Below, in pieces: positions 9,644-56,654 of a stretch of 64,000 nt of DNA. Position 1 is the first letter of the stretch. Every line of letters begins with the position of its first letter. The notes below the pieces were generated by a model. The model made no database searches. It saw nothing but the letters and a program-made list of their open reading frames with translations, and was not told where the DNA came from. Origin of the DNA: an uncultured Actinomycetes bacterium (GTDB taxonomy: Bacteria; Actinomycetota; Actinomycetes; S36-B12); the NCBI GenBank assembly GCA_903960135.1, contig CAJBZP010000069.1, positions 1,708 through 65,707 on the forward strand, read 5' to 3'. Made by a program: the position numbers and the translations under genes.

Positions 9644-9714
9644 TCCCGGGTCGTCTAGCGGCAGGACAGCGGACTTTGAATCCGTCAACGGTGGTTCGAT
9701 CCCACCCCCGGGAG
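9644..9714 (+). tRNA. tRNA-Gln (anticodon UUG)
   Basis: Hand-folded cloverleaf. Acceptor TCCCGGG/CCCGGGA. D stem GTCT/GGAC. Anticodon stem GCGGA/TCCGT with loop CTTTGAA (anticodon TTG). Variable loop of 4 nt. T arm GGTGG-TTCGATC-CCACC. Discriminator G. CCA is not encoded. Confidence 0.9.
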
Positions 9715-22876: not shown

Positions 22877-23143
22877 ATGACGACTCAGTCCTTGCGGGAT
22901 GTCCGAGACCACCTGTCCGAGGTCATCGATCGGGTCGAGCACCAGCATGAACGCGTCGTGGTTACCCGCAACGGAAAGCCTGCGGCGGTCATTCTCAGTC
23001 CGGAGGATCTCGCCCAAATGCAGGAGACGATCGACGTCCTGAGCGATCCCCAGGCTCTGGCCGACATCCGGGAGGCCGATGCCGCCTACGCGCGTGGCGA
23101 CGTCGTCCGCGGCACTGATGCCGTGCGCCACTTGCGCTCGTGA
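22877..23143 (+). CDS. type II antitoxin, Phd/YefM family
   Basis: Motifs LRDVRDHLSEVIDRVEHQHERVVVTRNGKPAAVILSPEDL and ETIDVLSDP. ATG 22877 chosen; the track ORF starts at 22817. Confidence 0.85.
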   Translation: MTTQSLRDVRDHLSEVIDRVEHQHERVVVTRNGKPAAVILSPEDLAQMQETIDVLSDPQALADIREADAAYARGDVVRGTDAVRHLRS

Positions 23144-23424
23144 CGGAGCAGCCCTACGAGATCGTCCTAACCCCGCCAGCCCGGCGCGCCATCACCGAGG
23201 ACCTGCCGGAGGCGGTGGCAGCCGCGGTCATCGACTTCGTGACCACGGCGCTTCTGGAGAACCCGCACCGCGTCGGGAAGCCACTGCGTAATGACCTCGA
23301 CGGCATCTGGTCCGCGCGCCGTGGCACGTATCGAGTGCTGTACCGGATCCGTGAGAACCCGCGTGAAGTCGTCGTCCTTCGCATCGATCACCGCCGCGCC
23401 GCCTACCGACCGCTGGGTCGATAG
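23140..23424 (+). CDS. type II toxin, RelE/ParE family
   Basis: 94 aa. GTGA overlap with the antitoxin. RelE/ParE-like C-terminus (RRGTYRVLYRIRENPREVVVLRIDHRRAAY). Confidence 0.85.
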   Translation: MTEQPYEIVLTPPARRAITEDLPEAVAAAVIDFVTTALLENPHRVGKPLRNDLDGIWSARRGTYRVLYRIRENPREVVVLRIDHRRAAYRPLGR

Positions 23425-24436: not shown

Positions 24437-26926
24437 TTATCTACCCGTTACTTTTTCATTGGCTGGGTCATACAAAGGCCGAAGTGAAGTAGTGGCTGGC
24501 ACTTTGACCCCGGCTACCTCGACCTCCCAATTGCCACCGGTTAAGTAATCGGCGGTTATCGGCTCGCTTGCATCCACCATCGCCAGCCCAACAGCGCCGC
24601 CGAGGGTGTGACCGTAGCTACCAGCGCGCACATAGCCAGCTACCTCGCCATCGCGAATGAGGATCTCGCCGTGGTAGAGCAACGGCAGTGGGTCTAGGAG
24701 CTTGACCTGCACGAGGCGTCGGTGCAGTGGGCCTGAGGCCTTTTTCTTTTGAGCTGCCTCACGCCCAATGAAATCACTGGCCTTATCCCAAGCCACCGCG
24801 AAGCCAAGGCCGGCTTCCAGTACTGAATCGGTGTTGTCGATGTCATGGCCATAGTCGCGATAGCCCTTCTCCATTCGCAAACTGGCCAATGACTTGAGCC
24901 CGCAATGGACGAGTTGAACTTGTTCGCCGACCTCGCACAGGCGTTCATACGCGTGCACGGCTTGCTCTGTTGGGACATAAAGCTCGTATCCGAGCTCGCC
25001 CACATAGGTGATGCGCACACATAGGGCCCGGGCGAAGCCAAGGTCAATCTCGCGGGCGGTGCGATAGGGGAATGCACTGTTTGACATATCGGTTGTGGTC
25101 GCAGCCTGCAGGAGATCGCGGGCAAGGGGGCCGTGAATATTGAATTGGGCGTAGCCAGAGGTCACATCGGTCACGGTGGCGGCAAAGTCTTTGCCGTAGC
25201 GCGTTAACCATTGAAGGACTTGGCCGTGGGCGGTATCCGATGCCACCACGAAGAACTTATTGGCGCCAAGTTTGGTAACGGTCAGGTCGGCTTCGATGGT
25301 GCCGGACTCGTTGAGCCACTGGGTGTAGGTGATGACACCATCGGCGCCATTTACCGCGTTCGCTGATACGTAGTCCAAGAGCGCCCCGGCCTGCTCGCCT
25401 TGGACCAAGAATTTCGACATGAAACTCATGTCCATGAACCCGACGCCCTCGCGGATGGCGCGGTGCTCGTTTGCCCAAGACTCAAACCAGTGCGGGCGAC
25501 CCCAGGTGAGTTCACCCGTCTCCGGAATTTCGCCGGGTGGGGCATACCAATCGGCGCCCTCCCAGCCGCTGACATCGCGGAAATAAGCCCCGCGCTCTTT
25601 TAGCAGGTGATGTATTGGTGAGCGCTTGACACCGCGGGCGGTCGTGACAGTGCGGCCGGGGTAATGAGTTTGATAAACCAGGCCGAGAGTCTCAACGGTG
25701 CGCTCAGCACGGTACTGCGGGTTTCGCTGGTGGGGGAGTGCGCGATTGATATTGAAACCGGTGACATCAACATCGGGCTTGCCGTTAATGATCCAGTGCG
25801 CAACAACGCGGCCGACGCCTCCACCGGTGAGGATGCCGACCGAGTTCATGCCGGCGGCAACAAAATAGTTGCGGATGCCTGGTGCCTCGCCGATGAACGG
25901 CTGCAAGTCCGGGGTGAAGGATTCAGGGCCGCAGAAGAACTTTCGGATCCCAGCTTCAAGGGAGATTGGCACGCGTTGCATGGCCCGTTCTAGGTATGGG
26001 CCCATGCGATCCCAGTCCGGCGGGATTTCACCAAAGGAAAAGTCCTGCGGAATTGAATCTACATTCCACGGTGCGCAAACGGGTTCGAAGAGGCCGATCA
26101 TCAAGCCGCCACCCTCCTCGCGGTAGTAGGCGTGCGCGGATGGGTCCTCGAATACTGGAAGTGTCGAGTCGATACCTGCGATGGTGTCGGTGATCAAGTA
26201 GTAATGCTCGGCCGCCTGAAGTGGAATATTTACTCCGTGCCCTTGGCCGAATTGACGCGCCCACATCCCCGTGCAGTTGACCACATAGTCGCATTCAATG
26301 TCACCGAGTGCAGTTGTTACTGATTGCACTCGCTCGTCGGTCACCTTCACCCCCGTTGCGGTGACTTCTTCAAAAATTTGCACCCCATTCGCGCGGGCCC
26401 CTTTGGCCAACGCCATCGTGACGTCAACCGGGTTTACCCGCCCGTCATCTGGTACATAGAAGCCGGCTTCTAGCCCGGTGATGTCGGCGATCGGAAATCG
26501 CTCGGCAATCTCGCGCGGGCTAATTTCATGGACTTCGAGCCCGCAGAGCCGATTGAATGCGGCCACCCGTCGGTATTCCTCGAGGCGGTCCTTGTCGGCC
26601 GCAGCTTCGATGAAGCCGGCGGGGTTGAATCCGGTGGCTTGGCCGGTCTTGGCTTCCAGGTCGCGATAAAGCTGGCGGGTATAAAGGCGCATCTGCATTG
26701 AAGTCTCCGAGAAGGAGCCAAAACAGGTCATCAGCCCAGCGGCATGCCACGTGGTGCCGGAGGTCAGTTTGTCGCGCTCGAGCAAAACTACGTCGGTCCA
26801 GCCGGCCTCGGCCAGGTGGTAGGCCACCGAGCAGCCGATGACCCCGCCGCCGATGATCACTACTCGGGCGCGGCTGGGCAGCGTGGTTTTGGACGGGACG
26901 GACATGGGCATAGCGCAGGATTGCAC
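24437..26926 (-). CDS. FAD-dependent dimethylglycine/sarcosine dehydrogenase-family oxidoreductase with C-terminal GcvT (aminomethyltransferase) fold
   Basis: N-terminal dinucleotide fold VVIIGGGVIGCSVAYHLA. Length about 820 aa. C-terminal folate-binding GcvT-like region (ITYVGELGYELYVP). Start ambiguous (26926, 26911 or 26905). Confidence 0.85.
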   Translation of the reverse strand: MQSCAMPMSVPSKTTLPSRARVVIIGGGVIGCSVAYHLAEAGWTDVVLLERDKLTSGTTWHAAGLMTCFGSFSETSMQMRLYTRQLYRDLEAKTGQATGFNPAGFIEAAADKDRLEEYRRVAAFNRLCGLEVHEISPREIAERFPIADITGLEAGFYVPDDGRVNPVDVTMALAKGARANGVQIFEEVTATGVKVTDERVQSVTTALGDIECDYVVNCTGMWARQFGQGHGVNIPLQAAEHYYLITDTIAGIDSTLPVFEDPSAHAYYREEGGGLMIGLFEPVCAPWNVDSIPQDFSFGEIPPDWDRMGPYLERAMQRVPISLEAGIRKFFCGPESFTPDLQPFIGEAPGIRNYFVAAGMNSVGILTGGGVGRVVAHWIINGKPDVDVTGFNINRALPHQRNPQYRAERTVETLGLVYQTHYPGRTVTTARGVKRSPIHHLLKERGAYFRDVSGWEGADWYAPPGEIPETGELTWGRPHWFESWANEHRAIREGVGFMDMSFMSKFLVQGEQAGALLDYVSANAVNGADGVITYTQWLNESGTIEADLTVTKLGANKFFVVASDTAHGQVLQWLTRYGKDFAATVTDVTSGYAQFNIHGPLARDLLQAATTTDMSNSAFPYRTAREIDLGFARALCVRITYVGELGYELYVPTEQAVHAYERLCEVGEQVQLVHCGLKSLASLRMEKGYRDYGHDIDNTDSVLEAGLGFAVAWDKASDFIGREAAQKKKASGPLHRRLVQVKLLDPLPLLYHGEILIRDGEVAGYVRAGSYGHTLGGAVGLAMVDASEPITADYLTGGNWEVEVAGVKVPATTSLRPLYDPANEKVTGR

Positions 26927-43006: not shown

Positions 43007-43213
43007 ATGACCAACAGCCTTGAGCGCGGCTTTGCCGAGGTTCGCTTCCTAACCGTCGCCGAGGTTGCCTCGGTGATGCGGGTTTCCAAGATGACCGTTT
43101 ATCGATTGGTTCATGGTGGTGAGCTCCCCGCGGTCCGCGTTGGTCGCTCCTTCAGGGTCCCAGAGCAGGCAGTACATGACTACCTTCGGGACTCCTTCGT
43201 CGAGACCGCCTGA
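43007..43213 (+). CDS. excisionase-family helix-turn-helix DNA-binding protein (Rv0500A-like)
   Basis: 68 aa with LTVAEVASVMRVSKMTVYRLVHGGELPAVRVGRSFRV. Conserved position after proC and before bS22 in actinobacteria. Confidence 0.85.
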   Translation: MTNSLERGFAEVRFLTVAEVASVMRVSKMTVYRLVHGGELPAVRVGRSFRVPEQAVHDYLRDSFVETA

Positions 43214-43298: not shown

Positions 43299-43397
43299 AT
43301 GGGCTCAGTGGTAAAGAAGCGCCGCAAGCGGATGGCAAAGAAGAAGCACCGCAAGCTGTTGCGTCGTACCCGAGTTCAGCGCCGCAATAAGGGCTAG
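43299..43397 (+). CDS. 30S ribosomal protein bS22 (32 aa)
   Basis: Not in the ORF track. Translation: [32 protein letters not shown]. It is near-identical in pattern to the mycobacterial bS22 peptide (Rv0500B-type). GAGGA lies 8 nt upstream of the ATG. Confidence 0.85.
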
Positions 43398-47856: not shown

Positions 47857-48087
47857 ATGCTCACCCTCGTCGGAAAGCCGGGCTGCCACCTTTGTGATGA
47901 GGCCCGGGTGATCGTGGCCCAGGTCTGCGCGGAGACGGCCACCGACTGGGAGGAAGTCTCGGTCCTTGATGAGCTCGCCCTTTTTGACCTTTATTGGGAA
48001 AAAATCCCGGTGGTCCTCATTGCGGGAGTCGTTCATGACTACTGGCGGGTGGATCCGGACCGACTGCGTGCGGCCTTATCCCGATAA
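47857..48087 (+). CDS. glutaredoxin-like small protein (Rv0508-like)
   Basis: 76 aa with a CxxC motif (GKPGCHLCDEA). Conserved position upstream of the rex/hem locus. Confidence 0.75.
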   Translation: MLTLVGKPGCHLCDEARVIVAQVCAETATDWEEVSVLDELALFDLYWEKIPVVLIAGVVHDYWRVDPDRLRAALSR

Positions 48088-48111
48088 TCGGACGTCAATG
48101 TCCGCTCAACT

Positions 48112-48129
48112 TTGTGAACTTGGGCACGA
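48112..48129. promoter_or_regulatory. candidate Rex operator (ROP), one perfect half-site
   Basis: TTGTGAA-cttg-GGCACGA against the consensus TTGTGAA-N4-TTCACAA. The left half is 7/7 and the right half 4/7. It lies 57 bp upstream of the rex ATG. Confidence 0.4.
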
Positions 48130-48185
48130 GTGCCTACCCTTAGGGCACCTCGCCGAAGCCGGTGGGGGCACCCAGCAGGAGCAAC

Positions 48186-48896
48186 ATGTCAATTCCCCTC
48201 GGCAAAGGCCGGCCCCGCGAGGCCGGACGTGGTATCCCCGATGCCACGGTAGCCCGGCTGCCGGTGTATCACCGGGTGTTGGTTTCCCTGAGCGCGGCCG
48301 GGGTGCAGACGGTCTCGTCCGAAGCCCTAGCCGCAAAATGTGGAGTGAGCTCCGCTAAATTTCGCAAGGATCTTTCCTATCTAGGCTCGTACGGGACCCG
48401 TGGTGTTGGCTATGACGTTTCCTACCTGACATATCACATCAGCCGGGAGTTGGGTTCCTCGCAACCTTGGGGTGTAGTAATCGTCGGCGTTGGAAACTTG
48501 GGCCGAGCGTTGATTTCTTATCGGGGCTTCACTTCACGCGGTTTCGCGATAGTCGGCCTTGTCGATAATCACCCCGATGTGGTGGGTGAGAGTCTGTCCG
48601 CGAGTGAACTTGCCTCGGCGGCGGACCTGACAATCCGGCCTCTGGTTGATCTCGAAGCCATCGTCGGCGACACGAAAGCCCAGATCGGCGTAATTGCCAC
48701 GCCGGCGGATTGCGCACAAGGGGTATGCGACCGACTAGTGGCCGCCGGGATTCGCAGTATCTTGAATTTCGCGCCGGTGGTACTTGAAGTACCCGACGGG
48801 GTTGAGGTCCGCAAAGTAGATCTTGCTGTTGAGCTGCAGATCTTGGCATTCCACGAGCAACGCCGTGGCTATGAGCAGGAGGCGATCAACGCATGA
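48186..48896 (+). CDS. rex: redox-sensing transcriptional repressor Rex
   Basis: Winged helix ATVARLPVYHRVL and Rossmann fold VVIVGVGNLGRAL...NFAP. ATG 48186 has AGGAG 5 nt upstream. Confidence 0.9.
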   Translation: MSIPLGKGRPREAGRGIPDATVARLPVYHRVLVSLSAAGVQTVSSEALAAKCGVSSAKFRKDLSYLGSYGTRGVGYDVSYLTYHISRELGSSQPWGVVIVGVGNLGRALISYRGFTSRGFAIVGLVDNHPDVVGESLSASELASAADLTIRPLVDLEAIVGDTKAQIGVIATPADCAQGVCDRLVAAGIRSILNFAPVVLEVPDGVEVRKVDLAVELQILAFHEQRRGYEQEAINA

Positions 48897-50566
48897 CCAA
48901 GCCGAAGAGTCCGGTAATACCAAATGAGCCAATTAGCACCAGCCCAGGAGAAACCGTGAATGCCACGACCAAGCCCCGCAAGAAGGTGAACTTGGGCTCG
49001 GTCGCGCTGGTTGCGGCAGGTCCGGGTGATCCCGAGTTGCTGACACTTCGCTCTGCGGCACTACTGCGTGATGCCGAAGTCGTCATTGTTGACGCGGACG
49101 CGATTGAGATTGCCAATGCCCACGTAAATCCAGGCGCCGAAATCACCATCGCACTGGACTCCGAAGGTGTCGCACTGGACCAAGCCGAACGGGCAAAGTT
49201 GATTATCAACGCCGCCCGCGAGGGCAAGCGCACCGTGCGGTTGATAGCTGGCGACCCGGTGGTTGATGGCACGTTGCTAAATGAGGCGGCGGCGCTGCGC
49301 AAAGCGAAGGTGCCTTTTGAGGTAGCCCCCGGTGTTAGTGAAGTCACCGGGATTCCGGCCTATGCCGGATTTGGATTAACCGGTGGCCGCACTCGGCAAA
49401 TCCGAGTCGTCGATGCCAATGATGCGGACCTTGACTGGGCCGACCTTGTTAATCCCCGCATTACGCTGGTCGTGCTTAACGGAGCCGACAAAGTTGCCGA
49501 AATTGCGGCCATGCTGCTCCAGGCGGGCGCAGACCCGCAGACTCATATTGCAGTCACTCGGCGTGGCACCACCGTTGATCAACGCACCATCGCGGGTACT
49601 TTGGCTGAGATCGGGAATATCTCAAAGCTGATGAAACTATCCGGGGTAGGCATGGTGGTCGTTGGTGATGTGGTGGCACAGCGCGAGAAAATGGACTGGT
49701 TCGAGGTCAAGTCACTCTTTGGGTGGCGGGTATTGATCCCACGAACCCAAGACACCACGGGTTCGATCATGTCGATGCTGCGCGGGCATGGCGCGGTGCC
49801 GATGGAGGTACCAACCATTTCGGTCGAACCTCCGCGCACCCCGCAGCAAATTGACCGGGCAATTCACGGCTTGGTTTCGGGTCGCTACGAGTGGATTGGA
49901 TTCACTTCGGTCAACGCGGTTCGGGCCATTCGCGAAAAGCTCGACGAGTACGGCCTAGATGCTCGGTCCTTCGCCGGCCTCAAGGTGGCCGCGGTTGGCG
50001 ACAGCACCGTGGCCTCACTGATTGAATTTGGCGTCCGACCGGATCTAGTTCCGGTAGGCGATCAGTCGACCAGCGCCCTGCTGGAGGACTGGCCGATCTA
50101 CGACTCATTGACCGACCCAATAAATCGGGTGTTCTTGCCACGCGCCGACATTGCAACCGACACTTTGGCGGCCGGTCTGGCTGAATTGGGCTGGGAGGTC
50201 GAAGACATCACCGCCTACCGCACGGTTCGGGCGGCCCCGCCGCCCGCCGAGGTGCGGGAGGCGATCAAGACAGGTGGATTCGACGCAGTGTTGTTCACCT
50301 CGAGCAGCACGGTGCGAAACCTGGTTGGCATCGCGGGCAAGCCCCACCACACCACCATCGTGGCGTGCATTGGCCCGCAGACCGCAAAGACGGCCCAGGA
50401 GCATGGCTTACGCGTTGACGTGCTTGCGGGCACCAGCACCTTGTACGGGTTGGTAGAGGCGGTCGCGGCCCACGGTGAAATTCTTCGTGAGGCAGCTCTT
50501 GAAGCTGGTGAGGGTAGTTGGCGCCCGAGCCGTCGTCGCACCGCCGCGCGCCGCAAGGTCACGTAA
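48893..50566 (+). CDS. hemD: bifunctional uroporphyrin-III C-methyltransferase-like / uroporphyrinogen-III synthase (CobA-HemD fusion, Rv0511-like)
   Basis: The N-terminal half is a tetrapyrrole methylase (VAAGPGDPELLTLR, GDPVVDG, VAPGVSEVTGIPAYAG). The C-terminal half is HemD (RVLIPRT..., WIGFTSVNAV, LFTSSSTV). Its ATG overlaps the rex stop (ATGA). Confidence 0.9.
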   Translation: MTKPKSPVIPNEPISTSPGETVNATTKPRKKVNLGSVALVAAGPGDPELLTLRSAALLRDAEVVIVDADAIEIANAHVNPGAEITIALDSEGVALDQAERAKLIINAAREGKRTVRLIAGDPVVDGTLLNEAAALRKAKVPFEVAPGVSEVTGIPAYAGFGLTGGRTRQIRVVDANDADLDWADLVNPRITLVVLNGADKVAEIAAMLLQAGADPQTHIAVTRRGTTVDQRTIAGTLAEIGNISKLMKLSGVGMVVVGDVVAQREKMDWFEVKSLFGWRVLIPRTQDTTGSIMSMLRGHGAVPMEVPTISVEPPRTPQQIDRAIHGLVSGRYEWIGFTSVNAVRAIREKLDEYGLDARSFAGLKVAAVGDSTVASLIEFGVRPDLVPVGDQSTSALLEDWPIYDSLTDPINRVFLPRADIATDTLAAGLAELGWEVEDITAYRTVRAAPPPAEVREAIKTGGFDAVLFTSSSTVRNLVGIAGKPHHTTIVACIGPQTAKTAQEHGLRVDVLAGTSTLYGLVEAVAAHGEILREAALEAGEGSWRPSRRRTAARRKVT

Positions 50567-50572
50567 CTTAGA

Positions 50573-51229
50573 GTGGCTCGCATGGGTGGCGATGATCGAA
50601 CCGTTGTGCACCTGCTCCGCCATGGTGAGGTCTACAACCCAGAAGGCGTGTTGTACGGGCGACTCCCGGGCTATTTCCTCTCTGACCTAGGTCAAGTGAT
50701 GGCAGAGCGCGCGGCAACGGCCTTGGCAAATCATGACGTCACCGCCGTTATCTCATCGCCAATGGAGCGGGCGCAGCAAACTGCGCAGCCAATTGCCGAA
50801 AAACATGGTCTGGTGACCCAGACCGACCCGCTGCTAATTGAGGCCGACAATATTTTCGAGGGGCAGCGGGTTAGCGTCGGCGATGGGGTGCTGAAGCAGC
50901 CCAAGACATGGCGCCATCTTTGGAATCCTTTTCGCCCGTCTTGGGGTGAGCCCTATGACGAGGTTGCTGCGCGCATGACCGCGGCGGTGCACGCGGCCCG
51001 TGATCAAGCCCGCGGCCACGAGGCCGTCTTGGTCAGCCACCAACTACCTATTTGGGTTGCGCGGTTGCGCGCCGAAGACCGCCGACTTTGGCACGATCCG
51101 CGCAGTCGACAGTGCTCACTCGCCTCACTTACCTCCTTGGCCTACGAAGGTGACGATCTAGTTGCGATTACCTATACCGAGCCATCGCGGGACCTTCTGG
51201 CCAAGGCCAGCAAGATCGCCGGCGCATAA
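50573..51229 (+). CDS. histidine phosphatase family protein (Rv0525-like)
   Basis: RHG catalytic motif (HLLRHGEVYNP) and a downstream LVSHQLPI His motif. Confidence 0.85.
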   Translation: MARMGGDDRTVVHLLRHGEVYNPEGVLYGRLPGYFLSDLGQVMAERAATALANHDVTAVISSPMERAQQTAQPIAEKHGLVTQTDPLLIEADNIFEGQRVSVGDGVLKQPKTWRHLWNPFRPSWGEPYDEVAARMTAAVHAARDQARGHEAVLVSHQLPIWVARLRAEDRRLWHDPRSRQCSLASLTSLAYEGDDLVAITYTEPSRDLLAKASKIAGA

Positions 51230-51237
51230 GCACCACG

Positions 51238-51828
51238 ATGCACCGTTCCGCTCGCCGATTAACCCCGGTGCTCCTCGCTAGTGCCGCAGTGTTTTCGCTT
51301 GCAGCCTGCGGTGGCAGTGATTCGGCTGCACCGGCGGGAGTCGATGCCGGTTATGTGGCCGGTGACGGCTCGATCGTGGTGCTCCCTGATGACGAGCGGG
51401 CACCGGCACCTTTCCTTGTCGGCACCACCCTCACGGGTGACAGCTTTGATCTAGCGCAGGCTCAAGGTGATGTTGTGGTAATCAATGTGTGGGCCTCTTG
51501 GTGCGCACCTTGTCGGGCTGAGGCCCCAGATCTCGAAGCCGCGTGGGCTAGGTTCGCCGGTGCTGATGTGCAGTTCGTTGGGCTCAACACGCGAGATTCA
51601 CCTAGTTCGGCAGCGGGCTTCGTCAATCGCTTCAAAATCACTTATCCGAGCATCGTCGACACCGATGGACAATTGCAGTTGCTCTTCCGCGACACGCTGC
51701 CCCCCCAAGCCATCCCGTCCACTCTGATCGTGGACAGGAAGGGCCGAGTGGCTGCGCGCGCGCTGGGCACGGTCAGCGAGTCATCCTTGCGGGCGATAAT
51801 TGAGCCACTGTTAGCCGAGCAACCATGA
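51238..51828 (+). CDS. thiol-disulfide oxidoreductase lipoprotein (TlpA/ResA family)
   Basis: Lipobox LAAC and thioredoxin motif WASWCAPCRAE. First gene of the System II cytochrome c maturation string. Confidence 0.85.
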   Translation: MHRSARRLTPVLLASAAVFSLAACGGSDSAAPAGVDAGYVAGDGSIVVLPDDERAPAPFLVGTTLTGDSFDLAQAQGDVVVINVWASWCAPCRAEAPDLEAAWARFAGADVQFVGLNTRDSPSSAAGFVNRFKITYPSIVDTDGQLQLLFRDTLPPQAIPSTLIVDRKGRVAARALGTVSESSLRAIIEPLLAEQP

Positions 51829-52562
51829 TCGGTGATTTAGTAACAAGCGGATCACTGCTTCTCGCCTTCCCGGTGGCCTTCGCTGCTGGACTTATTGCCT
51901 TTCTGAGCCCATGTGTACTTCCGTTAGCTCCCGGATATGTGTCATATATGACGGGCCTGACGGGGGCGGAACTCGGCTCTGGGCGCAAAAGTCGAATGTT
52001 GCTGGGCAGCGTGCTCTTCGTGCTCGGTTTCAGTGTGGTTTTCGTCTCCTTCGGGGCTTTCTTCGGTGGTGTTGGTGCGGTCCTGCTGCAATATCAAGAT
52101 GTCATCACTAGGGGGCTGGGGGTTCTAGTGATCATCATGGGGCTGGCGTTTATGGGCTTGATCCCAGGAATGCAGCGCGAATGGCGGATTCACCGCCTGC
52201 CGACCTGGGGTGTTGCGGGAGCGCCGCTCCTGGGCGTGCTGTTCGGCTTGGGTTGGACACCTTGTATCGGGCCAACCTTGGCGGCCGTGCAAACCCTCGC
52301 CTTCACCGAGGCCAGTGCCCTGCGCGGCGCACTGCTGTCCTTTGTCTATTGCCTAGGTCTTGGACTGCCATTTGTCTTACTTGCGGTGTTGTTCAGTCGT
52401 ACCGCGCGGGCGCTGACATTTGTTAAATCGCACTACCTGTTGGTCATGCGCATTGGCGGGGCGATGTTGGTAATTGTCGGGGTGCTGTTAGTCACCGGCA
52501 TCTGGACCGATGTCACAATCTGGATGCGCACATCAATTCCAGCATTTGAGACGGCTCTCTAA
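51825..52562 (+). CDS. ccdA: cytochrome c biogenesis thiol-reductant transporter CcdA
   Basis: DsbD-family membrane protein with the two conserved Cys motifs LSPCVLPLAPGY and WTPCIGP. ATGA overlap with the upstream gene. Confidence 0.9.
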   Translation: MIGDLVTSGSLLLAFPVAFAAGLIAFLSPCVLPLAPGYVSYMTGLTGAELGSGRKSRMLLGSVLFVLGFSVVFVSFGAFFGGVGAVLLQYQDVITRGLGVLVIIMGLAFMGLIPGMQREWRIHRLPTWGVAGAPLLGVLFGLGWTPCIGPTLAAVQTLAFTEASALRGALLSFVYCLGLGLPFVLLAVLFSRTARALTFVKSHYLLVMRIGGAMLVIVGVLLVTGIWTDVTIWMRTSIPAFETAL

Positions 52563-54110
52563 ATGATTAATGAGGCACCGATTCTGCCGCCGATGGGTAC
52601 CCTGGGGTTCCTGAGATTCGCTTGGCGGCAATTGACGAGCATGAAGACCGCCTTGATTCTGCTTTTCCTGCTAGCCGTCGCCAGTGTTCCGGGGTCGATA
52701 TTTCCACAGCGCGGCAATAATCCGCTGCGGGTAAATGAGTGGATTGCCGAGAGCCCAACTTTTGGGCCGATTTTCGATACCCTCGGTTTCTTTGACGTCT
52801 ATTCCTCGCCCTGGTTCGCCGCGGTGTACCTACTTCTTTTTCTCTCGTTGATCGGGTGCGTGGTGCCACGGACGCAGGTGCACTGGCGGGCGATGTTGGC
52901 TCCGCCTCCGCCGGTACCTCGTAACCTCTTGCGCCTGCCGCAGTCATTGGAGTTTGAAGTCGGTGCGCCAGCCAATGTGGTGCTGGAGCGGGCAAATACA
53001 TATTTCACAAGTCGACGCTGGCGATTGGTGCTTACTGAGACGTCAATTGCGGCAGAAAAGGGCTTCCTGCGCGAGACTGGAAACCTGCTCTTTCACTTCT
53101 CCCTCATCTTGATCCTGGTTGGTGTTGCCGTTGGCGGGTTATTCGGCTGGAAAGGCAATGTCATTGTTCGGGAGGGGCAGGGGTTCGCCAACACCCTGAC
53201 CCAGTACGACGCCTGGGGTGGCGGGCGATTCACCGGGGCAGCGCGGTTGTCGCCGTTCTCTTTCACCCTCGATGAATTCAACGTTGACTTCGAGCGCGGC
53301 GTCGCGCAGCGAGGGTCGCCAAGTCTCTTCGAAGCCGATGTCACCTACCGGAGGTCACCGGGCGCTGTTGCCGAAACGACCCGGGTCGAAGTCAATTCAC
53401 CACTTGCGATTGACGGTGCCAAAGTGTTTCTGGTTGGTCATGGTTACGCACCTCACATTGTGGTGCGTGACGCCAATGGGGTGGTCAGCTTTGACGACTC
53501 GGTGGTGTTCTTGCCGCAGGACGGAAACTTCACCTCTACCGGGGTGGTGAAGATTCCAGACTCGGACCCGCAATTGGGGTTCCAAGGAATTTTCGTACCA
53601 ACCGCACCAGCGAATAACTTACGGGGGCCGGTTTCGACTTTTCCGGGTCCAGATGATCCGACTGTCTTCCTTTCGGCCTGGCGTGGCGACATGGGCCTAG
53701 ATGCTGGCGCACCGCAGAGTGTGTACCGACTCGAGACCGCGGCCATGGAGCAGATCGGCATCGCTGCCCTGCGCCCGGGGCAGACCTGGGCGCTCCCGGA
53801 TGGTTCAGGCTCAATTGAACTAACCGGTTTTGAGCGGTGGGCGTCATTTCAGATTGCCTTCGATCCGGGTAAGGAGATTGCACTGGCCGGAGCAATTCTT
53901 GCGATGACCGGATTGATGTTGTCGTTGTTCATTCGCAGGCGTCGGGTCTGGCTAAGTGTTGCGTCAATTTCCCAAGGGGTTACGGTGGTGCAATTAGCGG
54001 GGTTGGCACGCATTGAATCAGCGGACCTGCCTGGTGAACTACAGTTAATTCGCGCTGCCGTTAGTGATTTACCGGACATCGTGTCGGAAAAAACAGCAAC
54101 CGATGTGTAA
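52563..54110 (+). CDS. resB: cytochrome c biogenesis protein ResB (CcsB/Ccs1)
   Basis: ResB topology (N-terminal TMs, large extracytoplasmic domain, C-terminal TM). It lies between ccdA and the CcsA-type gene. 515 aa. Confidence 0.88.
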   Translation: MINEAPILPPMGTLGFLRFAWRQLTSMKTALILLFLLAVASVPGSIFPQRGNNPLRVNEWIAESPTFGPIFDTLGFFDVYSSPWFAAVYLLLFLSLIGCVVPRTQVHWRAMLAPPPPVPRNLLRLPQSLEFEVGAPANVVLERANTYFTSRRWRLVLTETSIAAEKGFLRETGNLLFHFSLILILVGVAVGGLFGWKGNVIVREGQGFANTLTQYDAWGGGRFTGAARLSPFSFTLDEFNVDFERGVAQRGSPSLFEADVTYRRSPGAVAETTRVEVNSPLAIDGAKVFLVGHGYAPHIVVRDANGVVSFDDSVVFLPQDGNFTSTGVVKIPDSDPQLGFQGIFVPTAPANNLRGPVSTFPGPDDPTVFLSAWRGDMGLDAGAPQSVYRLETAAMEQIGIAALRPGQTWALPDGSGSIELTGFERWASFQIAFDPGKEIALAGAILAMTGLMLSLFIRRRRVWLSVASISQGVTVVQLAGLARIESADLPGELQLIRAAVSDLPDIVSEKTATDV

Positions 54111-54119
54111 GGAGCAGAT

Positions 54120-55070
54120 GTGAGCGCGACGGCGTTGGCGGGTGCCAGCAACGCGGCGGTTTACGCCTCAATGTTGACTCTAACCCTGGCAATGGTTGCG
54201 TTCGCGATCTCATTTGCCTCCGGTCGGCGCCGATCCGGGCTGACCCAATCGCAGGTACCCGTAGTAGCCGCTGTCGGAAGTACCGCGGTGTTGACTAAGC
54301 CGACGCTCGATGCTCCGACCGAGGACGACGCCGGTCGAAAATCTGCCAATATCGGGATGTCCTTCACCTGGCTGGGATTTGTCTTACTACTGGTTGGGGT
54401 GGTGCTCCGCGGCGTCTGGGCGGGCCGAGTGCCGTGGGGCAATATGTACGAGTTCTCAATAAGTGCTGCCGTAGGCATACTCGGCGCCTTCTTGATCGTC
54501 TCCCTGCGCCGCGACGTGCGCTGGCTCGGGCTCTTCATTGTGATCCCGACTTTGCTGACCCTTGGCTTAGCGGTGACCGTGCTCTACACCGAGGCTGCGC
54601 AGTTGGTGCCCGCGCTTAAGTCTTATTGGCTGGTGATACACGTTGCCGCCGCCATCATCTGCGCCGGCGCCTTCACGCTGGCTGCCGCGACGGCCAGCTT
54701 GTCCTTGGTGCAAGCCCGCGCCGAGCGCCGCGGCAAGGTCGGAGTAGTGAAGGTGCCGTCGGCCGAGAAACTTCGAACCTTGACGTACCGAATACTTGCT
54801 TTCGCATTCCCGTTGTGGACTTTCGCGGTCGTCGCGGGGGCAATTTGGGCCGAAAACGCCTGGGGCCGCTACTGGGGCTGGGACCCGAAGGAGACCTGGG
54901 CTTTTATCACTTGGGTTATCTTTGCCGCATACCTGCACGCACGTTCAACAGTTGGCTGGCGCGGGGATCGAGCCTCGTGGGTTGCCATTGCGGGCTGGGC
55001 AGCCTTCATAATCAATTACTTCGGGGTAAACATCTTTGTCAACAGCCTGCATTCATATTCCGGGGTTTAG
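54120..55070 (+). CDS. ccsB: cytochrome c-type biogenesis protein CcsA/ResC
   Basis: Trp-rich heme-handling motif WGRYWGWDPKETWAFITW with flanking conserved His residues. GTG start after AAGGAG. Confidence 0.9.
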   Translation: MSATALAGASNAAVYASMLTLTLAMVAFAISFASGRRRSGLTQSQVPVVAAVGSTAVLTKPTLDAPTEDDAGRKSANIGMSFTWLGFVLLLVGVVLRGVWAGRVPWGNMYEFSISAAVGILGAFLIVSLRRDVRWLGLFIVIPTLLTLGLAVTVLYTEAAQLVPALKSYWLVIHVAAAIICAGAFTLAAATASLSLVQARAERRGKVGVVKVPSAEKLRTLTYRILAFAFPLWTFAVVAGAIWAENAWGRYWGWDPKETWAFITWVIFAAYLHARSTVGWRGDRASWVAIAGWAAFIINYFGVNIFVNSLHSYSGV

Positions 55071-55511: not shown

Positions 55512-55838
55512 GTGGTGAAATCCTCCGGGTGGGCAATTATTCGCTTCACCGTGCTGCGTGTGCTGCTGTTTGGCGGTATTTGGCTGCTACTTCAATTGAC
55601 AACCCCGCTCCGTGGCCTAATTGCGGCTGTTGTTGCGCTCTTGGTCTCTGGGGTAATCAGCACCGTGGTGCTGAATCGGCAGCGGGCCGCGATGGGGGTT
55701 TCCCTAGCTGGTTTCTTCGGGCGGATAAATGCTCGAATTGATGCATCTTCTCGCGCCGAGGACGAGGCTGACGATCTGGAGCGCTCAGGAAAGGGCGAGC
55801 AAGAAGCCCAAGCCGAGTCCGTAGATAAGAACGAGTAG
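55512..55838 (+). CDS. DUF4229-like two-TM small membrane protein
   Basis: 108 aa with two hydrophobic helices and an acidic tail. The 3' end overlaps the menA 3' end by 54 nt (convergent). Confidence 0.6.
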   Translation: MVKSSGWAIIRFTVLRVLLFGGIWLLLQLTTPLRGLIAAVVALLVSGVISTVVLNRQRAAMGVSLAGFFGRINARIDASSRAEDEADDLERSGKGEQEAQAESVDKNE

Positions 55839-56654
55839 ACCCGTTTGCTTTAGTGCTGGGATGAGTTCAGGGCCGGTCGCCCCGCCAAGGATGAGGCGAA
55901 TCGGGGCAATTATGAGAAGGACCAGGGCGAACAGAACCAGCCACGAAACGATCGCAGCAACGATGATCGTGGTGAGCGCTGCCGCGATGATGCAGGCGAC
56001 ATAGAGCCAGCGGGTGCGCATATCGCCAAGGCGAACCGCGAGCGTGTACTTGCCAACTAGTTGATCGCTGGGTAGATCGCGCAAGTTATTAGTCACAAGC
56101 ACCGCACAGGCGAGTGCACCAACCCCGACGGAGGCAATCACGGCGGCGAGGGTAACGGTGTCAGATTGCACGTAAAACGTGCCTACAACGGGCACGATCC
56201 CAAAGAAGATGAGTACGAAGATTTCACCGAGTCCGTGGTACCCGTATGGATGCGGGCCGCCGGTGTACAGCCACGCTGCGGCTACGCAGGCCACGCCAAC
56301 AAGAAGCAACCACCAAGCTTGGGTGGCAACCACCAGTGCGAGACCGGCTATGCAGGCAACACCAAAAGCGCTGAAAGCGGCTAGGCGAACAACAGGTGGG
56401 CGCGCTAGTTCCTGGCCGACAAGTCGCACCGGCCCGATGCGCTTATTGTCAGTGCCGCGAATACCGTCGCTGTAGTCGTTCGCGAAGTTGACTCCGACCT
56501 GCAGCGCTAAAGCGACAACGAGCGCAAGGACGGCCCGGCCAGTTTGCAAGGAGTCAGCATTTATCGCCAGACCGGTGCCGACGGCAACCGGTGCCACGGC
56601 CGCCGGCAAGGTGCGCGGACGTGATCCCGCAACCCATTGACTTAAAGTTGCCAT
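55785..56654 (-). CDS. menA: 1,4-dihydroxy-2-naphthoate polyprenyltransferase
   Basis: UbiA-family motifs (NFANDYSDGIRGTD; a second Asp-rich region NNLRDLPSD). About 9 TM segments. Confidence 0.9.
   Translation of the reverse strand: MATLSQWVAGSRPRTLPAAVAPVAVGTGLAINADSLQTGRAVLALVVALALQVGVNFANDYSDGIRGTDNKRIGPVRLVGQELARPPVVRLAAFSAFGVACIAGLALVVATQAWWLLLVGVACVAAAWLYTGGPHPYGYHGLGEIFVLIFFGIVPVVGTFYVQSDTVTLAAVIASVGVGALACAVLVTNNLRDLPSDQLVGKYTLAVRLGDMRTRWLYVACIIAAALTTIIVAAIVSWLVLFALVLLIIAPIRLILGGATGPELIPALKQTGLLVLIYGLGLGFLLALS

Follow-up and report, generated by a model that had tools for sequence, protein, structure and literature searches.

The question raised by this locus is why a bacterium should keep hemD where hemA, hemC, hemB and hemL are all missing from their conserved slots. 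The locus lies on a contig of the abundant freshwater actinobacterial lineage acSTL (order Nanopelagicales, GTDB family S36-B12), of which we analysed a stretch of 64,000 nt with a GC content of ~60% (hereafter, the window). Here, a rex gene overlaps the start of a gene fusing a TP_methylase domain to a HEM4 domain, which a first-pass annotation had named CobA-HemD, and the fusion is followed by a histidine phosphatase gene and four genes for cytochrome c maturation. The reading we favour, with somewhat better than even confidence, is that this is a heme-scavenging acSTL bacterium in which the hem-ccs supercluster has been stripped, with hemD retained in a role for which HemC is not required.

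Our own searches for hem genes cover the window and the corresponding loci of relatives, and the genome-wide data are published tables for relatives. The relatives are the best 80 loci of a genome scan with the fusion protein (63–99% identity, GC 0.54–0.73, including 3.5-Mb chromosomes); beyond these, three more distant hem-less loci and the hem-bearing loci L096 and L097 were compared. Synteny among relatives was taken from tblastn coordinates. The Pfam scan of the window covered called open reading frames (ORFs) of at least ~100 residues, plus a few shorter ones.

A fusion protein identical to that of the window occurs in 369 blocks of public assemblies, including the lake metagenome-assembled genome (MAG) GCA_903933285.1, and on 257 contigs. 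In the genome scan, the closest relatives were MAG SYJA01 (99% identity), and a Lake Biwa acSTL bin, Baikal-G3 and Baikal-deep-G14 (93–94%), and many of the matches carry the title Candidatus Nanopelagicales. Baikal-G3 has been placed in the order Nanopelagicales, family S36-B12, genus GCA-2737125 (Kim et al. 2021, bioRxiv 10.1101/2021.01.11.426183). Several lake MAGs with a Nanopelagicales-type locus are deposited as 'Bifidobacterium breve', 'Bifidobacteriaceae' or 'Actinomyces sp.' (e.g. L013, L014, L016, L019 and L086); these names are evidently mislabelled public taxonomy.

Gene order at the locus and in its relatives

From 47857 to 55070, all on the forward strand, the window encodes a glutaredoxin-like protein, Rex, the TP_methylase-HEM4 fusion, a histidine phosphatase, TlpA, CcdA, ResB and a protein earlier termed CcsB (Table 1). 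The frame that had been read from the sequence at first pass was borne out by Pfam matches and by the public gene calls on identical contigs. So was the direct contact between rex and the fusion, in which the rex stop overlaps the fusion start in the ATGA at 48893–48896; an AGGAGG lies 10 nt before the fusion ATG. The fusion ends with the TAA at 50564–50566, and the gap to the phosphatase gene depends on which start is used: the 6 nt first reported hold for the GTG at 50573, whereas the ATG at 50582 chosen by the gene callers leaves 15 nt. Downstream of the phosphatase gene the junctions measure 8, -4, 0 and 9 nt. Because the genes are so tightly packed (-4 to 15 nt apart), the stretch from rex to ccsA is a probable seven-gene operon. 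A consensus scan for promoters and terminators found no promoter, and terminators only at background number. The public gene calls place menA, menE, menB, menC and menD downstream of the ccs genes.

The lack of hemA, hemC, hemB and hemL from their slots was confirmed by two kinds of search. Among the scanned ORFs of the window there were no GlutR, Porphobil_deam, ALAD, Aminotran_3, URO-D, ferrochelatase or Chlor_dismutase domains. A tblastn search of the window with E. coli HemA, HemB, HemC, HemL, HemE and HemH gave no match, but the E. coli HemD probe was also blank. The actinobacterial HemA, HemC, HemB and HemL of L096, used as probes, matched neither the window nor the locus of any hem-less relative, where no hem gene was found within 10 kb of the fusion.

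Table 1. Genes and domains of the rex-ccsA region, with positions in the 64,000-nt window
Feature	Positions	Strand	Evidence
Glutaredoxin-like DUF836 gene (Rv0508-like), upstream anchor of the frame	47857-48087	+	PF05768, 60.6 bits
Candidate rex promoter with Rex-operator-like 18-mer TTGTGAACTTGGGCACGA	48112-48140 (18-mer 48112-48129)	+	Consensus match; position in relatives
rex, 236 aa	48186-48896	+	PF06971, PF02629, NF003992
TP_methylase-HEM4 fusion, 557 aa	48893-50566	+	PF00590 and PF02602
Fusion N-terminal half, aa 1-265, SUMT-fold	48893-49687	+	PF00590, 130 bits
Fusion C-terminal half, aa 266-557, uroporphyrinogen-III synthase (HemD) domain	49688-50566	+	PF02602, 199 bits
Histidine phosphatase His_Phos_1 (Rv0525-like)	50582-51229 (alternative start GTG 50573)	+	PF00300, 122 bits
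TlpA/ResA-like thiol-disulfide oxidoreductase	51238-51828	+	Redoxin and AhpC-TSA domains; CAPC motif
CcdA, thiol electron transporter; 4-nt overlap with tlpA	51825-52562	+	PF02683
ResB/CcsB-type component of the system II cytochrome c synthase	52563-54110	+	PF05140, 467 bits
CcsA/ResC-type heme-handling subunit, WWD motif (earlier called ccsB)	54120-55070	+	PF01578, 160 bits

The contig represented by L096/L097 comes from a distant actinobacterium whose fusion is 47–48% identical to that of the window. There, the order is the glutaredoxin-like gene, hemA, hemC, the fusion, hemB, a small ORF, hemL, the histidine phosphatase gene, tlpA, ccdA, resB and ccsA, so that all four hem genes occupy exactly the slots predicted for the ancestral frame, and the window corresponds to this frame minus hemA, hemC, hemB and hemL. 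The ancestral supercluster would thus have comprised the glutaredoxin-like gene, perhaps rex, hemA, hemC, hemD, hemB, further genes, hemL, the phosphatase gene, tlpA, ccdA, resB and ccsA, and the four hem genes may have been lost from it early on, in an ancestor of the Nanopelagicales-related clade.

Two well-known gene orders resemble the locus. In M. tuberculosis, hemA, hemC, hemD, hemB and hemL are Rv0509, Rv0510, Rv0511, Rv0512 and Rv0524. We take the remainder of Rv0508–Rv0529 to run from the glutaredoxin-like Rv0508 through Rv0525 to a TlpA-like gene, ccdA, resB and ccsA. The window shares this order of glutaredoxin-like protein, HemD fusion, histidine phosphatase, TlpA-like protein, CcdA, ResB and CcsA, but rex is present in it, and the four hem genes are missing together with the genes in between. 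The second is the rex-hemACD(B) operon, with its Rex operator, of Streptomyces (S. coelicolor and S. avermitilis; PMC5355995). Here too, rex comes first and is co-oriented with hemD, and the Streptomyces HemD (P0123) is likewise of the fused type with a degenerate methyltransferase half; in the window, however, hemA, hemC and hemB are absent, rex is coupled directly to hemD, and the operon appears to continue into the cytochrome c genes.

The hem-less layout was found in 80 of the 80 genome-scan loci and in the three more distant ones, two lineages of only 56–57% identity included. Since all relatives share it, the deletion appears to be older than the radiation of the whole hem-less clade. 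Aligning the locus with its relatives thus dates the loss as old, and the absence, which had been put forward as a trait of this organism, is real here but equally present in all of these relatives. The glutaredoxin-like gene holds the same place in the relatives' loci and stands directly upstream of hemA in L096; the phosphatase gene lies 2–179 nt downstream of the fusion in the relatives, one truncated locus excepted, and downstream of hemL in L096. The rex-to-fusion gap ranges from -3 to 576 nt (in the 53 of 80 loci where both were detected), and ATGA coupling is restricted to the close acSTL group and L081, where tblastn coordinates indicate a similar overlap. As the hem-less layout is shared across the clade, 3.5-Mb genomes included, the absence of the hem genes from their slots alone cannot separate auxotrophy from relocation of the genes.

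Heme supply and the relocation of hem genes

The four genes downstream of the phosphatase gene had been ascribed to the attachment of heme to cytochrome c, and this assignment stood: the system II set is complete by Pfam (CcdA, ResA/TlpA, ResB and CcsA/ResC; dN/dS, the ratio of non-synonymous to synonymous substitution rates, 0.04–0.17). The protein encoded at 54120–55070 carries WGRYWGWDPKETW (the WWD motif) and three histidine residues, and TlpA carries CAPC. As this machinery appears intact (WWD and CxxC), the cell is predicted to need heme.

Whether it makes heme can be approached through its relatives. Kim et al. 2021 showed experimentally that strains of the freshwater lineage acI need hemin, and in their supplement scored 25 heme KEGG orthologues (KOs) in GTDB representative genomes. 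All acI genomes listed have COMMON = 0. Seven S36-B12 genomes, namely UBA4426, UBA3120, UBA7422, IN43, RS404, UBA10649 and Baikal-G3, have COMMON = 0.33, SIRO = 0.17, CPH = 0 and C5 = 0–0.5, and several genomes of AcAMD-5, UBA5976 and UBA12327 show the same COMMON = 0.33 pattern. By these scores, most S36-B12 genomes have only one of hemB, hemC and hemD and lack the lower pathway (Kim et al. 2021). Seven of nine informative S36-B12 genomes are without hemB, hemC and the coproporphyrin-dependent lower module (CPH), with single PPH-module hits in two; these seven are in part well recovered (UBA4426 94% complete, four others 83–87%, Baikal-G3 55%). A single COMMON hit together with a SIRO hit is what the fusion alone would yield. 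More of the pathway is present in NP52 (0.89), UBA11398 (0.56), NAT138, UBA10799 and palsa_747.

The text of Kim et al. 2021 describes the non-acI genomes only as 'more complete' and does not discuss the retention of hemD, and the literature mentioning S36-B12 or acSTL contained nothing on heme. The window's lineage shares with acI (Nanopelagicaceae) the order, the freshwater habitat and a predicted loss of the heme pathway, but acI has no hemD, whereas S36-B12 and the three other families keep it. Because the published KO tables for S36-B12 relatives lack the pathway, we infer its genome-wide absence in this species and regard heme auxotrophy as the likelier state of the lineage. Auxotrophy had been one of two options raised at first pass; it agrees with COMMON = 0.33 and CPH = 0 in most S36-B12 genomes, though not with the higher scores of UBA11398 and NP52. 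Most likely, then, the organism would make no heme and import it, and the imported heme would be attached to cytochrome c by the system II machinery encoded downstream.

The other option, simple relocation, is that the organism makes heme, with hemA, hemL, hemB, hemC and the lower pathway elsewhere in the genome (which would have to hold for every prototroph among the relatives sharing the hem-less locus), and that HemD is an ordinary, busy enzyme. We hold this to be possible but clearly the less likely state. The seven pathway-absent genomes of nine, the same pattern in three other Nanopelagicales families, and the failure to find hem genes either in the window or, in the relatives' loci, up to 10 kb from the fusion all argue against it. 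On the other side, several observations fit relocation or count against heme scavenging. The fusion locus of UBA11398 (L040) is hem-less although that genome scores C5 = 1 and COMMON = 0.67, with hemA and hemL present; with NP52 at 0.89, this indicates that members of S36-B12 can carry hem genes outside this locus, unless these MAGs are contaminated. The hem-less locus is also found in relatives with 3.5-Mb genomes of 70% GC, which may well be prototrophs. Baikal-G3, the closest tabulated genome (fusion 93% identical), is the one that is only 55% complete. No obvious heme transporter, of the heme ABC type or otherwise, was seen among the scanned ORFs of the window, and acI has no hemD at all and still respires. 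Finally, the HemD domain of the fusion is apparently normal and extremely conserved, for which continued synthesis of its substrate would be the simplest explanation, and we know of no second function of HemD.

The fusion protein and the selection acting on it

Both folds of the fusion can be taken as settled, because the sequence matches solved structures of S-adenosylmethionine (SAM):uroporphyrinogen III methyltransferase (SUMT) and of uroporphyrinogen-III synthase (U3S). The HemD half matches the U3S chains 3re1 and 4es6 in the PDB and has the conserved tyrosine in ITAYRTV, and the motifs VLIPRTQ, FTSVNAV, ITAYRTV and FTSSSTV are common to the window and to the Streptomyces and Mycobacteriaceae representatives. 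The protein scores below the curated hemD equivalog cutoffs (its best model, NF004593, gives 110.6 bits where 275 are required), but this weighs little, as no matched model looks built for the actinobacterial fused type (the best profile has 247 positions, and the 381-position PRK07239 matched partially).

As references for HemD we used six sequences, from Streptomyces, Frankiaceae, Actinospica, Microlunatus, Mycobacteriaceae and L096, the last of which carries hem genes; the five named lineages would be expected to make heme. Of the 131 HemD-half columns that are invariant in these six, 123 are kept in the window protein and, on average, 93% in the hem-less clade. The near-fixed changes of the clade (G41A, A359S and G395A) are conservative, a few further columns on which the references agree vary within it, and we see no sign of a changed active site in the HemD half.

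The invariance of this domain in actinobacterial fusions (window 49688–50566, and P0123–P0131) is unusual in itself, with 131 of 256 columns identical in the six references. HemD is normally a poorly conserved enzyme, and the HemD fusion is essential in M. tuberculosis. Such invariance hints at extra constraints on this protein across Actinobacteria.

Selection on the fusion was very strong by every comparison. Against close acSTL relatives (dS 0.5–1.1), dN/dS was 0.03–0.04 for the whole fusion, about 0.01 for its HemD half and about 0.05 for its N-terminal half, compared with 0.06 for Rex, 0.07–0.10 for ResB, 0.16 for TlpA and 0.02–0.05 for MenB; none of the other six operon genes had as low a value as the fusion. 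Over 97 close pairs, drawn from all subclades, the median dN/dS was 0.047 (whole fusion), 0.079 (N-terminal half) and 0.024 (HemD half). The pairs include a group of 54% GC that agrees in GC and habitat with the well-sampled genus UBA4592, and the strength of selection was the same throughout the subclades. All complete copies among the 80 genome-scan and three further loci have an intact reading frame. One locus, L075 (8573–10168), was left out of these statistics, as its extracted fusion showed dN >2 in all pairwise comparisons; the probable cause is an assembly error or an artefact of frame or extraction.

The N-terminal half has the class III methyltransferase fold and the SAM-binding loop AAGPGD. 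Aligned to CysG, it keeps GPGD, the equivalents of D248 and R298, and GDP, but K270 is replaced by L, GRGGEE by GTLLNE and PLTHR by GLTGG. R309 and E312 of GRGGEE and R347 of THR in CysG are, we take it, the counterparts of NirE R111, E114 and R149, which are catalytically essential. The protein also scores under the cutoffs of all NCBIfam cobA models (TIGR01469, 145.4 against 185; NF004790, 149.3 against 198).

When the full-length fusions from a search of 1.84 billion representative proteins were aligned, they fell into two classes. Class B fusions (33–40% identical to the window protein) are canonical bifunctional CobA/HemD proteins and keep every SUMT motif (VGAGPGDP, VYDRL, VGK, GDPFxFGRGGEE and GIPxTHR). 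Class A fusions (at least 40% identical, the window protein among them) have the same domain order, TP_methylase then HEM4, but VGK, GRGGEE and THR are replaced by variable sequence, and the HemD half (near-invariant VLVPRTK, FTSVNAV, DVTAYRTV and FTSSSTV) is far more conserved than the N-terminal half. No class A protein has the full SUMT motif set, with only scattered single matches. The class includes Streptomyces (P0123), Frankiaceae, Actinospica, Microlunatus and Mycobacteriaceae, and its members are often named simply uroporphyrinogen-III synthase by NCBI. On this alignment, the SUMT-like half is probably a pseudo-methyltransferase, and because its degeneration is common to all actinobacterial fusions examined, it appears to be a general feature of actinobacterial HemD and no sign of decay in this lineage.

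A retained CobA activity, by which the methyltransferase half would convert a scavenged precursor to precorrin-2 on the way to siroheme or cobalamin, is consequently very improbable. The TP_methylase fold, the GPGD motif and the public annotation 'uroporphyrinogen III methyltransferase/synthase' are in its favour, but the motifs common to canonical SUMTs (VGK, GRGGEE, P(L/V)THR) have been replaced by residues that vary freely among actinobacterial homologues, and this half evolves 3–4 times faster than the HemD half. The first-pass name CobA-HemD is thus misleading for its first half, and, of the two halves, the HemD half keeps its conserved motifs whereas the SUMT-like half has lost several of its catalytic ones.

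The least probable account, that hemD is a functionless remnant whose deletion is pending, could draw on the loss of its pathway partners from the locus and of hemD itself from the acI relatives, but it is refuted by the low dN/dS, the equal selection in each subclade, the intact frames, the identical copies on 257 contigs and the conservative nature of the near-fixed changes.

Under the reading that we favour, the so-called CobA-HemD would be an ordinary actinobacterial HemD under very strong purifying selection, and would therefore still do something. The same selection, with 123 of 131 invariant residues kept, would also be expected of a busy enzyme under relocation. Its role would most likely be one that does without hydroxymethylbilane from HemC, for instance binding or handling a tetrapyrrole or heme in cytochrome maturation, and the rex-headed unit shared with the cytochrome c genes points to this kind of role. 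Only tentatively, and with less confidence than in heme scavenging itself, do we suggest that actinobacterial HemD has a second function independent of heme synthesis, which would be the sole reason for selection in the Nanopelagicales families without other hem genes.

Rex, other features of the window and implications

The identity of Rex is well supported (NCBIfam Rex equivalog NF003992, 333 bits against a cutoff of 226; PF06971, 68 bits; PF02629, 56 bits). The protein has an N-terminal winged-helix DNA-binding domain and a C-terminal Rossmann NAD(H)-binding domain with the motif GVGNLG, and is predicted to be a redox-sensing NADH/NAD+ repressor. Its start is most likely the ATG at 48186, a column that is GTG in close relatives, preceded by the conserved AGCAGGAGCAAC; the longest-ORF start, GTG 48162, is less likely.

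A candidate Rex operator had been noted upstream of the gene. The 18-mer TTGTGAACTTGGGCACGA agrees with the consensus TTGTGAANNNNTTCACAA at 11 of 14 specified positions, and the window contains two sites of that quality, against 0.68 expected from shuffles. It overlaps a -35-like TTGTGA, which is followed by a 17-nt spacer and a -10-like TACCCT at 48135–48140; together these could be the promoter itself. Most relatives have the motif TTGTG-N8-C(A/G)C(A/G)A upstream of rex at a similar distance. Close relatives, however, differ from one another in the right half while sharing an invariant left half and upstream flank, and the left half could simply be the -35 element. The operator claim is therefore supported by the consensus match and recurrent position but not by the right half-site, and Rex autoregulation through it is plausible. 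The footprinted operator of S. avermitilis (TTGTG...CACAA) also lies over the -35 region of its rex promoter (PMC5355995); in the window the right half-site is degenerate. The seven genes would probably be transcribed as one operon from a promoter upstream of rex, itself repressed by Rex at a low NADH/NAD+ ratio.

Rex control of the retained hemD, which the first description had implied, is not universal. Several relatives keep the glutaredoxin-like gene, the fusion and the phosphatase gene without rex (L016, L018, L064, L068, L077, L079, L083, L084 and L093–L095), with glutaredoxin-to-fusion gaps of 109–537 nt, and in L095 the gap holds a HAD hydrolase gene. The loss of rex with the fusion kept has occurred in at least eight lineages.

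Further features were seen elsewhere in the window. A 32-residue ORF at 43299–43397 (+) encodes bS22, a small ribosomal protein (NF047430, 62.6 bits; cutoff 34), and is preceded by an excisionase-family helix-turn-helix gene at 43007–43213, an order that presumably matches the Rv0500A/B region of M. tuberculosis. A ParE-family toxin gene (23140–23424, +; PF05016) has no annotated antitoxin among the neighbouring ORFs, which gave no family matches. An 829-residue fusion of DAO and GCV_T domains at 24437–26926 (-), typical of dimethylglycine or sarcosine dehydrogenase, suggests the use of methylated amines. The DUF4229 gene at 55512–55838 (+) and the convergent menA (UbiA; 55785–56654, -) overlap by ~54 nt at their 3' ends, and the public gene calls agree. 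The sole Rfam match in the window is a tRNA at 9644–9714 (+), and Rfam found no riboswitches there, cobalamin and FMN types included.

Heme auxotrophy is already known from freshwater Nanopelagicales (acI). What the present locus adds is that the loss can be traced at one site, from a full ancestral frame to hemD alone; acI, according to the tables, represents a further step in which hemD is gone as well. Few of the genes examined in the region are as constrained as the surviving hemD. Its 'CobA' half is probably a pseudo-enzyme in every actinobacterium examined, and the siroheme step assigned to these genomes in pathway tables is therefore probably an error. For attempts to cultivate acSTL bacteria, the addition of hemin is suggested. 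If the genomes are truly without HemC, actinobacterial HemD must have an unrecognised role.

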